Counted from the first letter of the stretch, positions 5,890-53,340 are shown. The stretch: DNA of 64,000 bases from an uncultured Gammaproteobacteria bacterium (GCA_964404855.1 CAYOLO010000001.1:595396-659395), one strand, 5' to 3'. Notes: generated by a model not told the origin, from the sequence alone. A program made the numbers and translations.

Positions 5890-5965
5890 GGGTGGCTGAG
5901 CGGGCTCGAACCGCCGACCTCCAGGTCCACAACCTAGCGCTCTAACCAACTGAGCTACAGCCACC
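5890..5965 (-). tRNA. tRNA-His (anticodon GTG)
   Basis: Reverse complement is GGTGGCTGTAGCTCAGTTGG...TTGTGGA...GGTTCGAGCCCGC...CAGCCACC. Cloverleaf with encoded G-1 and GTG anticodon; closely resembles E. coli tRNA-His. Confidence 0.9.
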
Positions 5966-6014
5966 ATTCTGACTTGGTTTTGCTATTTCTAACAAAAGCG
6001 AGACGTATTGTACC

Positions 6015-6347
6015 CTAATCTTGGTGTTTCTTCAAAATTAAGTCTTGGTATCTTTTTTTGTTGTTGCGAAGGTAAATAAACGGCAAAATACCTGCTGTGT
6101 TAAAGATAAATAAAGAAATAAACCAACCTTTGTCAGAAAGCCTTGCAGCCCTCCACATAGCTTTTACTTTAAGAACAACATCAATAATCGTAATTGCAAT
6201 AATAACGACATAAATGACGCCGAATACGGCCATAAATGTGCCTGTATCTAGTCCTGAGTATGGGTTAATAGAATCATAATCGTTGACTACTGGCATATTA
6301 GTGTTTAACTCCTTTGAGTTAAGCGTGTTTTGTGTAAGATAATTCAA
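6015..6347 (-). CDS. small membrane protein (PLD-nuclease N-terminal-like / DUF)
   Basis: Two TM helices and a WRAARLSDKGWFISLFIFNTAGILPFIYL motif. Confidence 0.4.
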   Translation of the reverse strand: MNYLTQNTLNSKELNTNMPVVNDYDSINPYSGLDTGTFMAVFGVIYVVIIAITIIDVVLKVKAMWRAARLSDKGWFISLFIFNTAGILPFIYLRNNKKRYQDLILKKHQD

Positions 6348-6385
6348 TTATATTCACCTCCTTTGTGAAATCTTTGATGATTCTA

Positions 6386-6391
6386 TTATAA
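6386..6391 (+). promoter_or_regulatory. TATAAT -10 element upstream of tRNA-Arg
   Basis: Exact TATAAT about 18 nt upstream of the tRNA 5' end. The -35 element is weak. Confidence 0.35.
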
Positions 6392-6409
6392 TAGTTGCGC
6401 TCGGATAAT

Positions 6410-6483
6410 GTCTCCATAGCTCAGTGGATTAGAGCGAACGCCTTCTAAGCGTTAGGTCGCAGGTTCGAATCCTGCTGGAGGCA
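6410..6483 (+). tRNA. tRNA-Arg (anticodon TCT)
   Basis: GTCTCCATAGCTCAGTGGATTAGAGCG...CTTCTAA loop...GGTTCGAATCCTGCTGGAGGCA. Canonical D and T arms. Confidence 0.9.
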
Positions 6484-6533
6484 CACAAATTAAAGTTGGT
6501 TTATTCGCCCTATAGTAATATAATTGCTGCCCG

Positions 6534-7991
6534 ATGAAATTAAAGAGGTATATTTTTTTCTTATTATTAATTTTAATTGTTCTTTTTCCTCTGCCTGTGT
6601 TGGCGCGTGAAGATTTGGAACCTAAGAACATTAATACTGTAATTCCCTCACCTAATAACCGATTTGGAATACATCTCAATGAGCCAGAATCAGATATTGA
6701 ACATGCCAAGCTATTAGTTAATAGTAATGGTGATTGGGGTTGGGTGGTAATGGTGATTAGGTCGAACGATCGAGATAAGGAAAAATGGCAAAGGATTTTT
6801 AATAAATTACGAGAAGATCATTTGATTCCTGTAGTTAGAATTGCTAGCAAACCAAACGCGGCGGGATATTGGGAAAGACCTACTGAAGAAGATGCCAAAA
6901 ACTGGGCGGATTTTCTCGACTCATTGATTTGGCCTACAAAAACTAGATTTGTAACTTTGTACAATGAGCCTAATCATTCTGGTGAATGGGGTGGTGAGGT
7001 AGATCCTGTTGATTACGCCAATAGGTTTGTTGAACAAGCAAAACGTCTTAAGGAAAAATCTAATGACTTTTTTATTCTAAATGGCGCAATCGATGCTGCG
7101 CCTCCAAACGAAATGCCAAAGTTTGCGAGTTTTGAATATTTTGTCGGTCATGCTGTAGCGGGTAATAGTGAGTTTCTTCAATATATTGATGGGTGGGCAT
7201 CTCATAGTTATCCAAATCCTGATTTTGCTGCGCCTGTTACAAACACTGGTAAAGCATCGGTCAAATCATATGTGTATGAGAAGACATTTGTTGAAAATTT
7301 GGGTAAAAAAATTGATTATGTTTTTGTTACCGAAACCGGCTGGAAACATAGCGAAGGTGTAGATGTGGACGGTAATCGTATTAGCGCTGAGGAAGCTGCA
7401 GATCGATATAAAACTGCGTATCAGACAGTTTGGACTGAGGATTATCTCGTAATGGTAGCCCCTTTTATTATTGATTATCCAGACAAGCCTTTTGATAACT
7501 TTAGTTTTCTTAATCCTAGAGTTTTAGGTGAAAGAACGGCGAAATATTTGCCTAATTTTGAAATCATTCGTGATTTACCTAAAAATGTTGGTAGGGCATT
7601 TCAGGAGACAAGAGCAAAATTTGTAAATATTGGTCTTAAGAATTTTTATCGCAAAGGGTCGAATTTTGAAGCTCTAGTTACATTTAAAAATATTGGACAA
7701 AGTTTGTGGGGTGACAATGCTGAGGTTACACCGAGAATAACAGGTGCGGAAAACATTACTGATTTAAAAGTTGAAAAAATAACAGATACAGAACTTACGA
7801 ATGTTAATGAAAATGAAACTTGGAAAATTAGTGGTAATTTGGCAGAAAAAGGTGTGATTACTCTGGGTTTTACTCCGATTGACCAAAACCAAAACTCTTT
7901 GTCAAAACCCGTTAATATGCCAATTTATGTTTCTGACGGATGGGAATATGTTTATCTTTCGGCAAGGGATATACTTTCTGGGATATTGTAA
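6534..7991 (+). CDS. secreted glycoside hydrolase, GH5-like (clan GH-A), with C-terminal extension
   Basis: Signal peptide. YNEPNHSGEW (NEP acid/base motif) and FVTETGWK (nucleophile motif) are typical of GH5. Confidence 0.6.
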   Translation: MKLKRYIFFLLLILIVLFPLPVLAREDLEPKNINTVIPSPNNRFGIHLNEPESDIEHAKLLVNSNGDWGWVVMVIRSNDRDKEKWQRIFNKLREDHLIPVVRIASKPNAAGYWERPTEEDAKNWADFLDSLIWPTKTRFVTLYNEPNHSGEWGGEVDPVDYANRFVEQAKRLKEKSNDFFILNGAIDAAPPNEMPKFASFEYFVGHAVAGNSEFLQYIDGWASHSYPNPDFAAPVTNTGKASVKSYVYEKTFVENLGKKIDYVFVTETGWKHSEGVDVDGNRISAEEAADRYKTAYQTVWTEDYLVMVAPFIIDYPDKPFDNFSFLNPRVLGERTAKYLPNFEIIRDLPKNVGRAFQETRAKFVNIGLKNFYRKGSNFEALVTFKNIGQSLWGDNAEVTPRITGAENITDLKVEKITDTELTNVNENETWKISGNLAEKGVITLGFTPIDQNQNSLSKPVNMPIYVSDGWEYVYLSARDILSGIL

Positions 7992-8015
7992 GTAAAATAT
8001 GGCAGGGTTTTTTTT

Positions 8016-8088
8016 GGGAACGTAGCTCAGCGGTAGAGCAGTCGCCTCTTAAGCGATTGGTCCAGGGTTCGAATCCCTGCGTTCCCAC
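8016..8088 (+). tRNA. tRNA-Lys (anticodon CTT)
   Basis: GGGAACGTAGCTCAGCGGTAGAGCAGTCGCCTCTTAAGCGAT...GGTTCGAATCCCTGCGTTCCCA. Confidence 0.9.
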
Positions 8089-46866: not shown

Positions 46867-47116
46867 CTGATGAACTCATGCTTGTCAGGCTCATCCTTGC
46901 GGGACAAACTGAGGCGGCGCGAGCAGGTAGTTCGGCACATGGAGCGTGAAGGTTCTGGACGTCCAGACACACTTGTCGCCGTCGTGACCTTGAGAAAATG
47001 CGCTTCGGGCGATCCGAACCCGCTCCTCCGCAATCACCCGTCGATGAGTGTTGCCGTTGGGAACAGCACCACCAACTAAATCGACTTCGCCGCAGATGCA
47101 GGCGAAAGACGTAAAC

Positions 47117-47332
47117 TCAATGTCCACTTCTGATACTCCCTTCCGAAAGCAACCTGTCGTAAGCCTCCGTGACCATTTCGCGAGTGATGGCAGGGTTTTC
47201 GATGTAAGTGTTGCCAAAGACAAAACTTATCATCTGTGCCCTGCGGTCAGCGGGAGTCACTATGACTCCTCGAGTTTTGACCAAAAGATCGTCGAGGTCT
47301 GGTGTGTTGGAACGCTGTGATGTCATGCACAC
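47117..47332 (-). CDS. small hypothetical protein (GC-rich island)
   Basis: 71 aa, 8 bp downstream of the preceding ORF. An overlapping alternative-frame ORF at 46891..47223 suggests a possible frameshift or degeneration. Confidence 0.3.
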   Translation of the reverse strand: MCMTSQRSNTPDLDDLLVKTRGVIVTPADRRAQMISFVFGNTYIENPAITREMVTEAYDRLLSEGSIRSGH

Positions 47333-47340
47333 TTTACTTC

Positions 47341-47667
47341 TTATTCACCTCCAGTAAGATGTTGGATGTTCGGAAGCGCTTCCGCGAGTGAATTCCAGCC
47401 TCTTGGACGCAGAACTTCGATGCTGCGGAGTTCGGCGACTTCGAGCATGAACCCGATATGGTGGATGACTTCGTCTCTGGCTGCACCATTGAAGATGTGC
47501 AGATAAAGTGAAGCCGCGAAGGCTTCTCTGTTGGTGAGGGCTTCGGCTTCGTCGGCGCTGTAGATGAAATTCACAGCTGTTTCGGCAAGTTTCTGCCCAT
47601 AGCGTTTAGCTAGAACATCGAGAGCTTGTTGGGCTTGTGGGGACAGGACTGCTACTTGAGCACTCAT
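47341..47667 (-). CDS. hypothetical protein (GC-rich island)
   Basis: 108 aa with no known domain. Confidence 0.4.
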   Translation of the reverse strand: MSAQVAVLSPQAQQALDVLAKRYGQKLAETAVNFIYSADEAEALTNREAFAASLYLHIFNGAARDEVIHHIGFMLEVAELRSIEVLRPRGWNSLAEALPNIQHLTGGE

Positions 47668-47730
47668 CTTTACTTAGATAAACCGCCTTTTTTAATGAGC
47701 TAACAGATAGTCTACTCTAATAGGATTTTT

Positions 47731-47767
47731 TTGCAAGAAAAAGGCGGCCATATGGTTAATGGCCGCC
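47731..47767 (-). terminator. rho-independent terminator for the gene at 47814..48845
   Basis: ggcggccat-atggtta-atggccgcc perfect 9-bp stem, with a T-run on the minus strand. Confidence 0.8.
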
Positions 47768-47813
47768 AAAGAGGACTAGTTGACGGAATGTTCTTTAGCT
47801 CGCGAAAACAGGC

Positions 47814-48845
47814 TTAGAACCTGCGGCTCGAACCTTTAGATTTGCCGCCTGGGCCGGATCGGAAACCTCTAGTGTCCGTAAACGACTTCATTTTGCCGTT
47901 ACGTCCGGTCGTAAAGGTACCGATGCCCGGAACGTGCTGTGATGTGCCGGTAAGGTTGCCTCGGTTGTCGTGGTGGAAGGTCAGGCCGAGGCCTGGCACC
48001 TGCTGGGAAGAACCTCGGGTATTACCCCGACGGTCTTGGTTGAAGCTCAGGCCTGGTAGGCCCGAACGGGTCGAGGAACCGGTATGGTTGCCGCGGCTGT
48101 CGCTGCGGAATGTCAGGCCGAGTCCGTCGTTGCGAGGGCCTTGATAGCCACCGCCACGAGGTGCTCGTGGTCTTGGATGCTCGCGGCAATAGAAATCCCT
48201 GCTCGCATCGGGTTCAAACGGCAGATTCATCACGGAGTGCTGACCACCGACGCAGTAGGCAGCGTACTTCGGTTGAGGATGTTCCTTGCAGTGGAACGGT
48301 CGGTCGCCATTTGGCTGGAATGGAACTTTGACTGTGTGTAACCCGCCGGTGCAGAATGCGTCGAACATCGGCTTGGGGTGATCGCGACAGTAGAAGTCAC
48401 GCTTGGGGTCTGGAGCTCGGTTGAGCCCCTGAACTGTGTGACTACCGCCGACGCAGTACCCAGAGAATTTTGGTTGCGGATGGTCGCGACAGAAGAAGTC
48501 GCGCTTGGGGTCGGGTTGGAATGGAATCTTGGTTTGATGGTCCCCGCCAACACAAAACGCATCGTACATGACACGAGGCGCTGATTTGTGGTCTCGGCAG
48601 TTGAACGGTCTGCTACTGTCCGGTTCGAATGGGAGTTCGACCGTGTGCCCGCCGTTTTTGCAGTGGGCGGTGTACATTTCACGCTGAGGGCGTGTTTGCT
48701 GACTGCCACCGCCTTTGCGGGCAGCACGGCAATTTGGGCACCGCGTGGGTTGTGAGAATCCTTTCTCAGCGAAGAATGTCTGTTCCCGTTCGGAGAAGTC
48801 GAACCTCTGCGAACAGTCTTTGCAGGTGAGGGTTTGGCTGGGCAC
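47814..48845 (-). CDS. zinc-ribbon + tandem Cys/His repeat + RGG/Gly-rich tail protein (putative nucleic-acid binding)
   Basis: N-terminal CKDC...CPNC ribbon. Five ~34-aa repeats F/YCxGGxH(T/S)V...PFxPDxxRDFxC(R/K)(D/E)HPxP. C-terminal GLGLTF(R/H)xDxRGNxTG repeats. Confidence 0.6.
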   Translation of the reverse strand: MPSQTLTCKDCSQRFDFSEREQTFFAEKGFSQPTRCPNCRAARKGGGSQQTRPQREMYTAHCKNGGHTVELPFEPDSSRPFNCRDHKSAPRVMYDAFCVGGDHQTKIPFQPDPKRDFFCRDHPQPKFSGYCVGGSHTVQGLNRAPDPKRDFYCRDHPKPMFDAFCTGGLHTVKVPFQPNGDRPFHCKEHPQPKYAAYCVGGQHSVMNLPFEPDASRDFYCREHPRPRAPRGGGYQGPRNDGLGLTFRSDSRGNHTGSSTRSGLPGLSFNQDRRGNTRGSSQQVPGLGLTFHHDNRGNLTGTSQHVPGIGTFTTGRNGKMKSFTDTRGFRSGPGGKSKGSSRRF

Positions 48846-48997
48846 GAAGAAGAATACCTTTCTCTAACCGTGATAAGCAGGAACTGGTTTGAATCGTACA
48901 ACTAGTTAATGTGCTTAGTCCTTTCTGTTGAGGGTTTGACACTCTCAAGTTGGAAATTGGAGTAATTATATCAAAAAATAACAACTATGGGATTGAA

Positions 48998-49035
48998 TAA
49001 GAAAAAGGAGAAGCCAAATTAATAGTCTTCTCCTT
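48998..49035 (-). terminator. rho-independent terminator for the gene at 49060..49518
   Basis: ggagaag...cttctcc stem followed on the minus strand by TTTTTCTTATT. Confidence 0.75.
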
Positions 49036-49059
49036 ATGTTTGTCTGGTCGAATGCCTTT

Positions 49060-49518
49060 TTAGGTGGCGGTAGTGATCCGCTTGGTGCGCATTTTCGCTT
49101 CTTCAGCGAAACTGCTCTTGTGGCTGTTGACGACAAGGGCGACATCAAAGTTCTTGATGGGGGTTTCGCACCGAGTGAAACGCCACGCGTCGTAAATCAT
49201 CGTGTAGATGGTCCTAATGTGAGGGCCGTCGGAGTCCTGACGAGCGATCAACTTGAGCTCGTCGACCGTAAGGTTAGCGACGACGCTTCGGCCACATTCG
49301 AGCCTGGCTTCGCCAGCCCTGCAGATTACGAGGCGGTCAGTTGGCCCGTTGGGGTTGAACCGAACGATTTCGAGCCTGCCGTGGGCGCGGTGAGCGATGT
49401 TCGCCAGCTTCTGGGTGAAATAAGCCAGCGAGTTTTCGTCGTTTTTGGGGATACGACGAATCTCGGCCGTAAGGCGCCTGACGGAACGCGGCTTCCTATG
49501 AGCTTGCCTGTGCGACAT
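49060..49518 (-). CDS. hypothetical basic protein (GC-rich island)
   Basis: 152 aa, Arg-rich N-terminus. GGAG Shine-Dalgarno 8 nt upstream of the ATG. Confidence 0.5.
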   Translation of the reverse strand: MSHRQAHRKPRSVRRLTAEIRRIPKNDENSLAYFTQKLANIAHRAHGRLEIVRFNPNGPTDRLVICRAGEARLECGRSVVANLTVDELKLIARQDSDGPHIRTIYTMIYDAWRFTRCETPIKNFDVALVVNSHKSSFAEEAKMRTKRITTAT

Positions 49519-49698
49519 TACTACTCCAGATTAAAAGTTCCTTGCCTCAATCGTTCCCACCCACAGGCTGTGGACAGGTCTTTTTGACACAAGAGCGGTA
49601 TTCTAGCTCAATTATTGTAAAAATACAACAATATAAACTAAAATAATTCAATCCTGTAGTAAACTGTATTTTAGTTAAATTGATATAATAATTGCATA

Positions 49699-50355
49699 AT
49701 GGAGAGAGAGCCAATTTTTATTGCCCACAAGGGTGATACAGTAAATTTTCCCGAAAACACCCTCGAAGCGTTTGAGAGTGCTTTTAGTAAAGGTGCAGAT
49801 GGAATTGAAATGGATGTTCACTTAAGTGATACAGGTAAGATAATTGTGGTCCACAATTATCTCTATGACAGGAGGCAAAACTACCCAACGCTCGACGAAG
49901 TACTGGCAAGATTCGCTTCTCGAGGAAGAATTGAGATTGAGGTGAAAGAATTAGAGGAAAATGCCCTTGCAATTATTGAGGGGATTGTAAATAAATACAG
50001 ACCTTTTGATGTCGAAGTAACCACAAGTGTCCAACCACTCATGCCAAAAATTAGTGAAGTTTTTAATACTGACAGGCGCGGACTTATTTTTCGTAACAAT
50101 TTAATTGAAGATTGGATGCCCGAAGAATTTCGTATTAAATGGATTTTGGCACACTTACATTTAACTGGGGCAAATGTTCTGCATCTTGACCTTGACCTCT
50201 ATACACCAGCAATTATTGCTGCTATGCGAAATAAAAAAATTGTGACACATACACACATAAAAGCGGATAACAATGAAGCCATCGACAAAGTTAGACTATT
50301 GAGAATTGATCAATTCACTTTTGATGATATCGAACTACTAAAACAAAAGAAGTAA
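49699..50355 (+). CDS. glycerophosphodiester phosphodiesterase
   Basis: IAHKGDTVNFPENTLEAFESAFSKGADGIEMDVHLSDTGKIIVVHN GDPD catalytic motifs. Confidence 0.85.
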   Translation: MEREPIFIAHKGDTVNFPENTLEAFESAFSKGADGIEMDVHLSDTGKIIVVHNYLYDRRQNYPTLDEVLARFASRGRIEIEVKELEENALAIIEGIVNKYRPFDVEVTTSVQPLMPKISEVFNTDRRGLIFRNNLIEDWMPEEFRIKWILAHLHLTGANVLHLDLDLYTPAIIAAMRNKKIVTHTHIKADNNEAIDKVRLLRIDQFTFDDIELLKQKK

Positions 50356-50371
50356 ATAAGCCCAAAAAACA

Positions 50372-50555
50372 TAAAAAAAGAGGAAGAGACGGTTGTCTCT
50401 TCCCCTGACTCACTGGCCCCTGTTTAGGGCTTGGAGTGGCTGGCCGAGCCAGCAGTTAGGCTCGGCTTCGCCGGCGCCGCCTGGACCTTATGAAAAGAAC
50501 CGCGTGATGCTATTCAAGCATAGGCCTCCAGAACGTTTTTTTTGGTTTTTAACCG
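50372..50555 (-). ncRNA. predicted small RNA (~185 nt), identity unknown (6S-like size)
   Basis: Minus-strand consensus promoter TTGACA (50590-50585) N17 TATAAT (50567-50562). GC-rich body in an AT-rich intergenic region. Intrinsic terminator ggaagagac-aacc-gtctcttcc followed by a U-run (50404-50372). Confidence 0.55.
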
Positions 50556-50626
50556 GGTATAATTATATTATATCTTATAGTAATTGTCAAATACTGCGAA
50601 TAAAAACCTATATAATAAGTACTACA

Positions 50627-51334
50627 ATGAAAATAAGAAATAATGGGTTTATTTATGTTTTTTCAGAGACTAGTGACGGCAACATGTCCTACACTTGGGG
50701 TGGCCAAAATGAAGTCGATATAAACAGAAGTAAATTTTTAAAAAAATATTCACTCGAGCCTACAAAATGCGTTAAGGCATCACTGGTACACGGAACAAGA
50801 ATAAAAATCGTTACTGAAATAAATTGTGACTGCGATAAAGAATATGTTTGTGACAGTTTGATAACTAACTCAAAAAAAGTTGTATTGTGTATGGTGACGG
50901 CCGATTGTTTCCCCTTGGTAATCTTTGACCCAAAAACCAAACTAATATCCCTAACCCACCTTGGACACCGAGGAGTATCGGCAAAACTAACCAAAAAAGT
51001 GATTAAAAAAATGCAAAAACTTGGTTCAGAGCCAACTAATCTAGTCGCGATAATTGGAGCAGGAATCAGAAAAGAGTCGTATGTTTTTGATGATGTCACT
51101 CAGAAAAACGATCCTGAGTGGGGAAATTTTTTGAGGAACACAAAGAATGGCAAAATCTCTGTAGATTTGGTTGGGTTTATAGTTAGACAGTTAACAGAAA
51201 GTGGAATCATGCAGAACAATATTCGTGACCTTGAGATTGATACAGCTCAAGGTAACAAATATTTTTCGCATTACAGAGCGCAGTTATTAAACGAAAAAGA
51301 AGGAAGGTTTTTGTCGGCGGTAAAAATTACTTAA
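50627..51334 (+). CDS. pgeF: peptidoglycan editing factor PgeF / YfiH (DUF152, laccase-domain) family
   Basis: TADCFPLVIFDP and LTHLGHRGVSAKL motifs. ORF trimmed to MKIRNNG because the listed upstream extension crosses the sRNA region. Confidence 0.75.
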   Translation: MKIRNNGFIYVFSETSDGNMSYTWGGQNEVDINRSKFLKKYSLEPTKCVKASLVHGTRIKIVTEINCDCDKEYVCDSLITNSKKVVLCMVTADCFPLVIFDPKTKLISLTHLGHRGVSAKLTKKVIKKMQKLGSEPTNLVAIIGAGIRKESYVFDDVTQKNDPEWGNFLRNTKNGKISVDLVGFIVRQLTESGIMQNNIRDLEIDTAQGNKYFSHYRAQLLNEKEGRFLSAVKIT

Positions 51335-52640
51335 CTTTTTTTAAGGTTTCTAGTATCTGTCTTGCTAATTGATGCGAATTACCTGAACCCATAACTAATA
51401 TTATTTCGTTATTTTCGAGCGATTGGGATAAGCTTTTTGTAATTGTTTCAAAATCAGGAATGTACTCACTATTTTTTATGACATCGGCGATGTTTTGACC
51501 TGAGAAATTTGGATCTTCTTTTTCGCGGCTGGTAAATATTTTGGAAATAATGACCTTGTTAGCTAGTACGAGTGAGTCTGCTAGCTGGTCGAGTGTGAAT
51601 TTTAGCCGGCTAACGGTGTGTGGTTCGATAACTACGGTTATTTTGGCTTCTGGATACCGAGAATTAATGGCTTCAATTGAGGCCTTAAAAGCACTTGGGT
51701 GGTTGGCGTAGTCATCAAAAACCATGACTCCCCTGCTTGTTCCAATCAGCTCCAGACGTCTGTTAAGACCAGTAAAATTTGATAGAGATTTGAGTGCGAT
51801 TTGCTCAGAAATACCAAGTACTCTAGCTAGTTCTAGCACACCCAATGCGTTGTCCTTGTTGTGCTGACCAAGAACAGTGAGAGCAATGTTTTTAGTATTT
51901 TTGCTTGGGTAGTAAGGAGCTAATTGGACTAATGAATTTTTGAAAGATTTAACTAGTCTTTGGTTACCGATATTTTCCGCGTTATAGATAAGCACACTAC
52001 CTGTCGGCATGTTCGAAACTAAGTTTTGATAAGATTCCAACATACGCTCAAATGTCAAAAAATATTCAGGATGGTCCATTTCGATATTATTCAGGATTAG
52101 ATAATCGGGATGATAAGAGGCAAAGTTGTCGTGGAATTCATCGGCCTCCGAAATGAAATATTTACCATCGCCTAATAGAATATTATTTTGCCAACCAATG
52201 TCGGTTGCGCCAATCTCGACCGTTGGATTAAGCTTCGCGTCTTGCAGTAAGTGACCAACCATCGCCGTCGTGGTGCTTTTTCCGTGTGTGCCCGCAATGC
52301 AAATCACTTTTTTATTTTTGTGGAGATATTGACCCAAAAAATCCTGCCATTTAACTAGAATATTTTTATTTTTAGCCTCTAATATTTCTGGGTGGTTTTC
52401 GTTTTGATAAAAAACCGCGGGTGTTACTGCCACCAAATCAGCGTCTTTAATGTGTGATATGTCGTGACCTGTGAATACTTTAATGTCTGATGATTTCACT
52501 TTTTGAATATAAGGGGTGTCACTGGCAACATCACAGCCTGTGACTTGATATCCGTAGTTTTTAGCAATTTGGGCAACAGCTGAAACACCAGAACCGCCAA
52601 TACCAACAAAATGAATATTTTTAATCGGTTTTTGAATCAT
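51327..52640 (-). CDS. murC: UDP-N-acetylmuramate--L-alanine ligase
   Basis: IHFVGIGGSGVSAVAQI N-terminus, Mur ligase central and C-terminal domains. Start trimmed to the MIQKPIKN ATG at 52640. Confidence 0.85.
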   Translation of the reverse strand: MIQKPIKNIHFVGIGGSGVSAVAQIAKNYGYQVTGCDVASDTPYIQKVKSSDIKVFTGHDISHIKDADLVAVTPAVFYQNENHPEILEAKNKNILVKWQDFLGQYLHKNKKVICIAGTHGKSTTTAMVGHLLQDAKLNPTVEIGATDIGWQNNILLGDGKYFISEADEFHDNFASYHPDYLILNNIEMDHPEYFLTFERMLESYQNLVSNMPTGSVLIYNAENIGNQRLVKSFKNSLVQLAPYYPSKNTKNIALTVLGQHNKDNALGVLELARVLGISEQIALKSLSNFTGLNRRLELIGTSRGVMVFDDYANHPSAFKASIEAINSRYPEAKITVVIEPHTVSRLKFTLDQLADSLVLANKVIISKIFTSREKEDPNFSGQNIADVIKNSEYIPDFETITKSLSQSLENNEIILVMGSGNSHQLARQILETLKKVK

Positions 52641-52654
52641 ATGTTGTATTTTAA

Positions 52655-52687
52655 TAAAAAAAGGCGCTCTGTGAATTTTAGAGCGCC
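52655..52687 (-). terminator. rho-independent terminator for the gene at 52723..53340
   Basis: ggcgctct-gtgaatttt-agagcgcc stem followed on the minus strand by TTTTTTT. Confidence 0.8.
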
Positions 52688-52722
52688 AAAGGGCGTAAGG
52701 ACAGAGGTTGGGAGAAAGAATT

Positions 52723-53340
52723 TTAGGCTTGAGAGCCAAGCGACTCGGCTACGAGTTTTGCAAACTCGTCGGCCATTGTATCGCGGTTGTGCCAACCGAC
52801 CTTGAACATCACGACCTCATCGCGATTAGCAAGCTGTTGACCAGCTTCCATAATCATTCTGGCCATGTCTAGGCGCTTGGCAAGCTCTTCAGCTTCCATT
52901 GCCTGTCTCGCGGTCATGTTGTGAGTCAGATACTCTGGCTCTGCTTCGAGCACGAACCAGCGCACAAGACTGACATCTTTGGCCTCTGGCCTTTCAGCAA
53001 GCTCCTGAGGAACTGCTGCCTGATAAACGGGATTAAGCTCGATGATGGCGCCAGTTGCGCCGCCAGCGGCTAAGGCTTGGATGTCCCCAATGCGGTAAGC
53101 ATAGTGGAATCCCTTGTTTTCGTGATGACCGACCAACTCACCACCGTTAAGATGGTTTTCGTAGTCAGCACCAGAGATACAGATTTTGGTTTCGATGCCT
53201 ACGCCCCTATCAGGACGGGTCGTAACCATCTGAGGATTGCTCAGCCCGAGCCGTTCGATGACGACTTGTGTGAGGTAATCCTTACCAGCTCCGGATGGTC
53301 CGGAGATCCCAATTACTGGAATTTGTTTTGTTTTATCCAT
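52723..53340 (-). CDS. gmk: guanylate kinase family protein (GC-elevated)
   Basis: P-loop GISGPSGAGKD, TTRPDR and downstream Gmk-like regions. Noticeably higher GC than the flanks. Confidence 0.65.
   Translation of the reverse strand: MDKTKQIPVIGISGPSGAGKDYLTQVVIERLGLSNPQMVTTRPDRGVGIETKICISGADYENHLNGGELVGHHENKGFHYAYRIGDIQALAAGGATGAIIELNPVYQAAVPQELAERPEAKDVSLVRWFVLEAEPEYLTHNMTARQAMEAEELAKRLDMARMIMEAGQQLANRDEVVMFKVGWHNRDTMADEFAKLVAESLGSQA

Follow-up and report, generated by a model that had tools for sequence, protein, structure and literature searches.

Bacterial RNAs of several kinds come close to the element described here. Stand-alone small RNAs (sRNAs; e.g. Hfq class II, ChiX) are independent intergenic units with a sigma-70 promoter, several hairpins, and a Rho-independent terminator, and terminator-type riboswitch leaders combine invariant junction or loop nucleotides and covarying stems with a following intrinsic terminator. 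Housekeeping RNAs such as 6S RNA and SRP RNA (4.5S) also have strong promoters, and helix 8 of SRP RNA carries the sequence GGUCAGGUCCGGAAGGAAGCAGC. Uncultured bacteria with small genomes have hardly been explored for non-coding RNAs, and annotation pipelines are limited to the content of Rfam. Of 35 complete genomes of the Candidate Phyla Radiation (CPR), 10 had RNase P RNAs that scored below the Rfam thresholds (PMC8172020), and because of this precedent the score alone does not suffice to reject a diverged universal RNA.

In this study, we analyzed a stretch of 64,000 nucleotides (in the following, the window) deposited under an uncultured gammaproteobacterium. As judged from the sequence, the segment 50372-50590 on the minus strand is very probably the gene of a conserved, folded non-coding RNA of ~180 bases that belongs to no Rfam family. 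The features of the gene and its neighborhood are as follows.

50585-50590, minus strand: -35 hexamer TTGACA, identical in L001, L002, L005, L006, and L009
50562-50567, minus strand: -10 hexamer TATAAT (TACAAT in L001 and L006)
50372-50556, minus strand: predicted transcript of ~180-185 nt, from the geometry of promoter and terminator
50544-50554, minus strand: P0, small 5′ hairpin GGUU-AAA-AACC with invariant GG and ACC
50536-50543, minus strand: single-stranded linker AAAAAAAA, A-rich in all lineages
50478-50535, minus strand: P1, long irregular hairpin, from individual folds and helix-by-helix alignment
50466-50491, minus strand: invariant core AUAAGGUCCAGGCG(GCG)CCGGCGAAG, comprising the P1 3′ strand, the junction, and the start of P2
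50438-50472, minus strand: P2, hairpin GGC-GAA-GCCGAGCC / GGCUCGGC-CA-GCC, from folds (helices 4-5)
50408-50437, minus strand: P3, hairpin ACUC..GCCCU-AAACA-GGGGC..GAGU with conserved loop ..ACA
50372-50405, minus strand: P4, intrinsic terminator with stem-loop 50405-50380 and U-run 50379-50373
50488-50517, minus strand: possible 9-codon ORF UUG..UAA (MNSITRFFS*) inside P1, with GGAGG upstream
49699-50355, plus strand: GDPD-family gene, convergent with the RNA gene
50627-51334, plus strand: pgeF (Cu-oxidase_4/YfiH family), true CDS, divergent from the RNA gene
51327-52739, minus strand: murC, overlapping the guanylate-kinase-like gene by 17 nt
52723-53340, minus strand: guanylate-kinase-like gene, upstream of murC

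Predicted transcription unit and neighboring genes

The sigma-70 promoter at 50590-50562 on the minus strand (TTGACA, 17-nt spacer, TATAAT) had been reported as exact in the first-pass annotation, and it reached the full score of 12/12 in the promoter scan. The exact combination occurs only once on both strands of the 64 kb, compared with 0.02 sites expected from dinucleotide-preserving shuffles, and the 17-nt spacer is nearly identical between the group of sequences closest to the window (the window group) and L006. With a start 6-8 nt past the -10 hexamer and an end within the U-run, we infer the transcript limits given above, while matches to the covariance model span 50364-50561. The terminator lies ~150 nt 3′ of the predicted RNA start. 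Its perfect 9-bp hairpin GGAAGAGAC/GTCTCTTCC with the loop AACC and the subsequent U-run are present as noted before; the stem is in fact longer, since the full stem-loop AGGGGAAGAGAC-AACC-GUCUCUUCCUCU (50406-50379) has 11-12 pairs, one of them G-U, followed by seven U. A compensatory change from G-C to C-G was found in the terminator of L001 and L035. Terminator-like sites are not generally enriched in this region (11 versus 10.3 expected); what stands out is how strong this single site is and that it is paired with the promoter.

The RNA body (50405-50545) has a G+C content of 57.4%, compared with 39.9% for the window and only 21% for the 71-base interval that separates the RNA start from the start codon of pgeF. 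The 184-nt transcript folds with -75.5 kcal/mol (z = -4.7), and none of 200 shuffles was as stable. In these respects the first-pass annotation proved right: it had described a G+C-rich body with local stems such as GCCGAGCC-UAACUGCU-GGCUCGGC, which is present, and had proposed the folding of the transcript as a check.

The listed ORF 50393-51334 had been regarded as an artificial extension of pgeF across the element, and indeed it adds 78 codons that run antisense through the RNA gene. The true start of pgeF is at 50627, as follows from the Pfam domain, which covers residues 19-232 of the resulting 235-aa protein, from the lengths of PgeF homologues (225-235 aa), from the homologous Met at which the ORF starts in relatives including L001, and from the structure model of the 235-aa protein with a pLDDT of 93.5. 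The plus-strand extension is absent in L001, L002, L006, and L009. The over-long call of 313 aa is also found in public data (P0033), and the correction thus concerns a recurrent annotation error. On the plus strand, a TATAAT (50611-50616) is located 10 nt before the ATG of pgeF (50627), and the stretch AAAAACCTATATAATA (50606-50629, plus strand) is conserved in L001; the pgeF mRNA may be leaderless or nearly so, with its promoter back-to-back with that of the RNA. The -35 hexamer TTGACA of the RNA reads TTGTCA on the other strand. Downstream of pgeF, the 17-nt overlap of murC with the guanylate-kinase-like gene suggests coupled expression. The listed murC ORF begins ~37 codons before the first residue aligned with solved MurC structures, and the MurC calls of relatives have 429-434 aa; since the ORF is over-long against both, the true start is probably located further downstream.

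Regarding the host, MurC of the window matches E. coli and H. influenzae MurC with ~190 bits in the N-terminal half only, and the best matches of UvrB are entries from Bacillus and Geobacillus. Many proteins of the window are without a family, and more distant relatives are found in compact CPR-like gene contexts. Therefore, the label Gammaproteobacteria, which is also carried by L001, looks doubtful, and we infer from these sequences a small-genome uncultured bacterium, possibly of the CPR type.

Several further features of the window were observed. A block of ~50% G+C in the 38% genome (39967-45085, minus strand) contains co-directional genes for GtrA, two glycosyltransferases (one PMT-type and one of family 2), and GH113; it is preceded by an 11/12 promoter TTGACC-17-TATAAT (45085-45057) and looks like a horizontally acquired glycosylation operon. 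A second G+C-rich block (47000-49600; 52-55%) comprises two genes, which encode a 343-aa protein built from treble-clef zinc-finger repeats (47814-48845, minus strand) and a 152-aa protein without a family (49060-49518, minus strand) that is conserved with 49-51% in L003 and L006. An ORF that overlaps the latter gene on the plus strand (49036-49587) shows less conservation and is probably spurious. Three tRNA genes, His-GTG (minus strand), Arg-TCT (plus strand), and Lys-CTT (plus strand), are interleaved with ORFs within 2.2 kb (5890-8088).

Homologues, fold, and covariation

Relatives were found via PgeF, by a scan of one genome per species and a subsequent nhmmer search of the contigs of distant PgeF homologues. 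The one-genome-per-species scan gave one relative, L001, which was assembled from wastewater reads and has a PgeF identity of 87%. The element is also present in L002-L004 (PgeF identity 88%), L005 (71%), L006/L007 (55%), and L009/L010 (45%). A scan of metagenomes with the core pattern yielded 120 stretches, of which only L035, identical to L001 in this region, was real, while the remaining 119 were G+C-rich coding DNA. None of 26 stretches from a scan of viral contigs was real, BLAST searches of plasmids and phages gave no match, and the loci of more distant homologues of PgeF or of the guanylate-kinase-like protein were without synteny and without the RNA. Within the window, the element occurs in one copy. 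Homologues of the element are contained in the DNA sequencing runs SRR22387770, SRR22387748, SRR27197517, SRR11524814, SRR32555621, and SRR26372210.

In total, six distinct sequences from three lineages were available: the window group (L001/L035, L002-L004, and L005), L006/L007, and L009/L010. The whole unit of -35 hexamer, -10 hexamer, and terminator is kept in L001/L035, L002-4, L005, L006/7, and L009/10. The RNA of L005 is 89% identical to that of the window, compared with 74% for the pgeF DNA; for L006 the values are 72% and 62%, and for L009 65% for the RNA, 59% for the pgeF DNA, and 63% for murC. By these identities, constraint on the RNA equals or exceeds that on the adjoining protein genes. 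Conservation of the element upstream of pgeF in relatives had been suggested as a check, and the element was found beside pgeF in the window group and L006, and beside murC in L009. Membership in a conserved protein-coding gene, which would have spoken against an RNA gene, was not observed, since no conserved ORF crosses the element in relatives. The family is, as far as these sequences go, real but narrow, comprising three lineages of uncultured low-GC bacteria.

The arrangement of the neighboring genes differs between the lineages. In the window group, the RNA gene is located between the GDPD gene and pgeF, divergent from pgeF and with a convergent gene downstream. In L006, it is also divergent from pgeF, and a 146-aa gene with its own promoter-like site follows 140 nt downstream. 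In L009, it is located between the guanylate-kinase-like gene and murC, immediately upstream of murC; its U-run ends ~25 nt short of the murC start, and this gap contains no further promoter. The element always stays within ~2 kb of murC and pgeF. As it keeps its own promoter and terminator while its position changes, it behaves as an independent gene. Three further observations were made in L009: the guanylate-kinase-like gene has a strong terminator of its own (GGCGCCC..GGGCGCC and a U-run; 7300-7390, minus strand), a second TTGACA is located ~70 nt upstream of the RNA promoter, and murC has a GTG start without a visible Shine-Dalgarno sequence 25 nt past the U-run of the RNA.

The folds of the window-group sequences agree in P0, the A-rich linker, P1, P2, P3, and the terminator. 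MAFFT misaligned L006 and L009 in P1 and P2, and for this reason the helices were placed by hand in each sequence; this gave the same architecture in all lineages, with changes that keep pairing. In P0 (helix 1), the two outer pairs are invariant and the inner pairs are not kept; its GG could instead pair with the CCGG of the core. In P1 (helices 2-3), the 5′ strand CGU-CUGGA-GG-CCU-AUG is variable and the 3′ strand CAU-A-AGG-UCCAG-GCG is invariant, and 8 of 20 pairs have changes on both sides. Examples are P1b, which reads CCU/AGG in the window, CUG/CGG in L006, and CCG/CGG in L009, and P1c with AUG/CAU, UU/AA, and UAUU/AAUA, respectively. P2 has changes from C-G to G-C and from C-G to A-U in L006 and L009, and its lower part reads GCC/GGC in the window, GGA/UCC in L006, and GCA/UGC in L009; the loop UAACUGCU contains the conserved A-A/C-Y-U-G-C. 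P3 (helix 7) is paired to 100%, with double changes in two of five pairs (G-C and A-U three times each), and across the sequences G-C, A-U, U-G, and C-G variants occur.

The most conserved part of the RNA is the G+C-rich core of ~25 nt, AUAA(C)GGUC(AC)CAGGCG(N0-3)CCGGCGAAG, which is identical across the three lineages except for insertions of 1-3 nt, while its partner strands vary between lineages. In L009, the core can alternatively form a 9-bp long-range pairing with the 5′ end of the RNA itself. On thin evidence, a loop-loop contact is possible between the P1 apex AGCA (50508-50511) and the P2 loop UGCU (50451-50454; minus strand). Its fourth pair would be A-U in the window and in L002, whereas L001 has G-U and L005 has G-C at this place; for the loop sequence ACUGC of P2 in L009, a perfect partner GCAGU is located right after the core instead.

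For covariation analysis, a covariance model R1 reproduced the MAFFT misalignments of L006 and L009 and was replaced by R2, which was built from four window-group sequences alone. R2 recovered both distant lineages, with scores of 85 bits for L006 and 37 bits for L009. In the R2 alignment, 93.5% of the cells are standard pairs, compared with 86.4% in shuffles, and 14 of 55 pairs have changes on both sides; the shuffle mean was 5.0, none of 500 shuffles reached 14, and slid controls had at most four such pairs. The hand-made helix table agrees with these counts. The support from covariation is real but modest, i.e. good and not overwhelming, because there are six sequences and the alignment was fitted to the structure.

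Alternative explanations for the element

The general features of sRNA genes are present: a promoter and a terminator of its own in an intergenic region, both in all homologues, no conserved protein frame, and a conserved structure with compensatory changes. The call of a stand-alone sRNA gene in the first-pass annotation is therefore supported, with the unit conserved in three lineages, compensating pairs, and no crossing ORF. We regard it as somewhat more probable than not that the gene is independent and that its ~180-nt non-coding RNA is a stable, trans-acting product whose core is read by a partner. The consensus sigma-70 promoter would drive strong, probably constitutive transcription, which the intrinsic terminator would end. 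The RNA would fold into the 5′ hairpin, the A-rich linker, P1, P2 with its AAYUGC loop, P3 with its ..ACA loop, and the terminator stem. The candidate functional site is the invariant ~25-nt core AUAA(C)GGUC..CAGGCG..CCGGCGAAG in the P1 3′ strand and the P1/P2 junction, to be read by a protein or a second RNA; that the core is invariant while its pairing partners vary suggests a reader other than the RNA's own helix. Action in trans is an argument by exclusion. In this reading, the RNA would be neither the leader of the next gene nor an mRNA. In the search for partners, the long duplexes predicted by RNAduplex with 53 start regions were meaningless and no better than those with shuffles, and the 152-aa protein was rejected, being encoded downstream in the window group and L006 and not found in the L009 locus.

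The reading in trans has to be weighed against local action. In L009 and L010, the element immediately precedes murC in the same orientation with a gap of ~25 nt, and the lack of an intervening promoter implies that the RNA is also the murC leader in this lineage. Generalized, the element would be a cis-acting 5′ leader of murC, a riboswitch-like sensor or attenuator with the terminator as expression platform, in which read-through sets murC expression, and the copies in the window and L006 would be displaced leaders retained as orphans. The location of the element, always within ~2 kb of murC and pgeF, agrees with this, as does the resemblance of the invariant core, variable stems, and terminator to an aptamer with expression platform. 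However, a position in the 5′ UTR of a same-strand gene was seen in L009 and L010 alone. The two other lineages have no same-strand gene after the element, as GDPD is convergent in the window group and the next gene in L006 is 140 nt off with its own promoter-like site. In addition, murC in the window overlaps its upstream gene by 17 nt and needs no leader, a perfect promoter and 72-89% identity are not expected of an orphan leader, and inspection, which was non-exhaustive, revealed no conserved anti-terminator pairing. We consider the murC leader unlikely as a general explanation. Still less probable is a new RNA class with a housekeeping or sensor role in a CPR-like clade, tied to the synthesis of peptidoglycan precursors (murC and pgeF), or a radically remodelled SRP or 6S RNA; in the housekeeping or sensor variant, a ligand or protein would bind the core, and the RNA would gate murC via the terminator in L009-type genomes and act in trans elsewhere. 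In the window lineage, local action could also be directed at pgeF, by antisense transcription to GDPD-pgeF read-through or by promoter competition: the RNA gene fills the GDPD-pgeF spacer on the opposite strand, whereas in L009 this spacer has only 66 nt, its hairpin is without a plus-strand U-run, so that GDPD transcripts may run through, and the -35 hexamer is located 36 nt from the pgeF ATG, with the plus-strand TATAAT at 50611-50616 in between. We judge this very improbable, as other lineages are arranged differently (a GDPD gene is missing upstream in L006, and the RNA of L009 is located elsewhere) and the conserved fold and invariant core are left unexplained.

The remaining explanations concern the nature of the RNA itself. 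An mRNA or dual-function RNA for a 9-residue peptide would be encoded by the mini-ORF UUG AAU AGC AUC ACG CGG UUC UUU UCA UAA, which has a GGAGG 8 nt upstream. The first-pass annotation had named AUG-CUU-GAA-stop as the only ORF, which is correct for AUG starts and overlooks this UUG ORF of nine codons (50517-50488). A UUG start, nine codons, UAA, and a purine-rich Shine-Dalgarno-like element are matched in all three lineages, with the peptides MNSITRFFS (window), MQNKIVSFE (L006), and MNSFIAIFE (L009). With regard to a leader-peptide attenuator, these peptides share no codon run. Against a functional peptide, all four differences within the window group are non-synonymous (I/V, R/Q/L), while the same changes keep or improve RNA pairs (U-G to U-A, G-C to G-U). 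The serine switch from AGC to UCG in L009 is a flip of a 2-bp stem from GC to CG that is matched on the opposite strand, the Shine-Dalgarno-like GGAG is buried in P1, and eight open in-frame codons arise by chance with an estimated probability of roughly 0.2. The mini-ORF is probably not functional, and a peptide-encoding RNA is the least probable of the readings considered here. A diverged and shortened universal RNA (SRP, 6S, or RNase P) beyond the reach of the Rfam models is slightly less probable than the new RNA class named above. In its favor, housekeeping RNAs typically have a consensus promoter, a high G+C content, and deep conservation, the L009 core string GGUCCAGG..GGCGAAGCAG resembles the SRP helix 8 sequence, and the host seems CPR-like and not gammaproteobacterial, with RNase P RNAs below the Rfam thresholds being known from CPR genomes (PMC8172020). 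Against it, no SRP, 6S, RNase P, or tmRNA model scored at E≤10, also in relatives, and tests for the features that define each of SRP, 6S, and RNase P RNA showed that these are lacking, as detailed in the following.

Comparison with known RNA families

At gathering scores, Rfam 15 detected only the three tRNAs in the whole window. At E≤10, neither the 401-nt nor the 136-nt segment searched gave a 6S, SRP, RNase P, or tmRNA match, and three relatives likewise had no family match; chance fragments of CrcZ, the CsrC terminator, and the int-alpA hairpin (16.8 bits versus a threshold of 35.8 bits) were dismissed. The suggestion of 6S RNA (RF00013) in the first-pass annotation, made on account of the length, did not hold: even at E≤10 there was no match, and the RNA folds into a row of separate hairpins P0-P4 and not into a rod with a central bubble or an end-to-end closing stem. 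SRP RNA (RF00169/RF01854) was rejected as well. No model matched, and helix 8 of SRP RNA has a GNRA tetraloop as its cap and a conserved symmetric loop (5′ side ..AGG, 3′ side AGCA). In the element, a GNRA loop is missing (the loop is GCC in the L001 type and CCGG in L006 and L009), and instead of an invariant AGCA the 3′ motif varies by lineage between AGCC, AGGA, and AGCA; the helix-8-like stem of the window itself has a G-G mismatch. For RNase P RNA (RF00010/RF00011), no match was found at E≤10, and the 180 nt contain no separated P4 strands: the CR-like strings AAGGUCC.. and CCGGCGAAG are adjacent, and P4 of RNase P consists of the distant CR-I and CR-V strands. ARAGORN found no tmRNA and only the three tRNAs elsewhere in the window, and a tRNA-like domain or tag frame is absent. 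A CsrA/RsmA sponge was rejected because there are only two GGA motifs, neither of them in a loop.

As to its significance, the element illustrates how a conserved, structured RNA that no library names can be revealed by three signals together: a consensus promoter, a terminator, and a G+C spike within an AT-rich spacer. The importance is moderate, as the family is narrow. A functional link to murC and pgeF, if there is one, would be a first hint of RNA control of the first committed amino-acid addition in the synthesis of peptidoglycan in such organisms.

Among the known systems, 6S RNA is similar in length (~185 nt), in its strong promoter, and in being non-coding, but it is processed, whereas the RNA of the window ends in its own terminator. 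SRP RNA (4.5S) shares a conserved G+C-rich stretch CAGG ... GAAGC and a housekeeping-style gene with a strong promoter; in contrast to SRP RNA, the motif is not at the tip of an end-paired hairpin here, and GGUCC pairs with an upstream strand. Terminator-type riboswitch leaders resemble the element in the order of invariant junction and loop nucleotides, covarying stems, and intrinsic terminator, but no known aptamer class matches. With stand-alone sRNAs, it has in common the independent intergenic unit with several hairpins, a single-stranded stretch rich in A close to the 5′ end, and a terminator hairpin with U-tail. It differs from typical base-pairing sRNAs in being longer (~180 nt) and far more G+C-rich and structured, and its most conserved part is in a helix and junction and not in an open seed. 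The element is thus not a new kind of system but a new family of a familiar kind, absent from Rfam.
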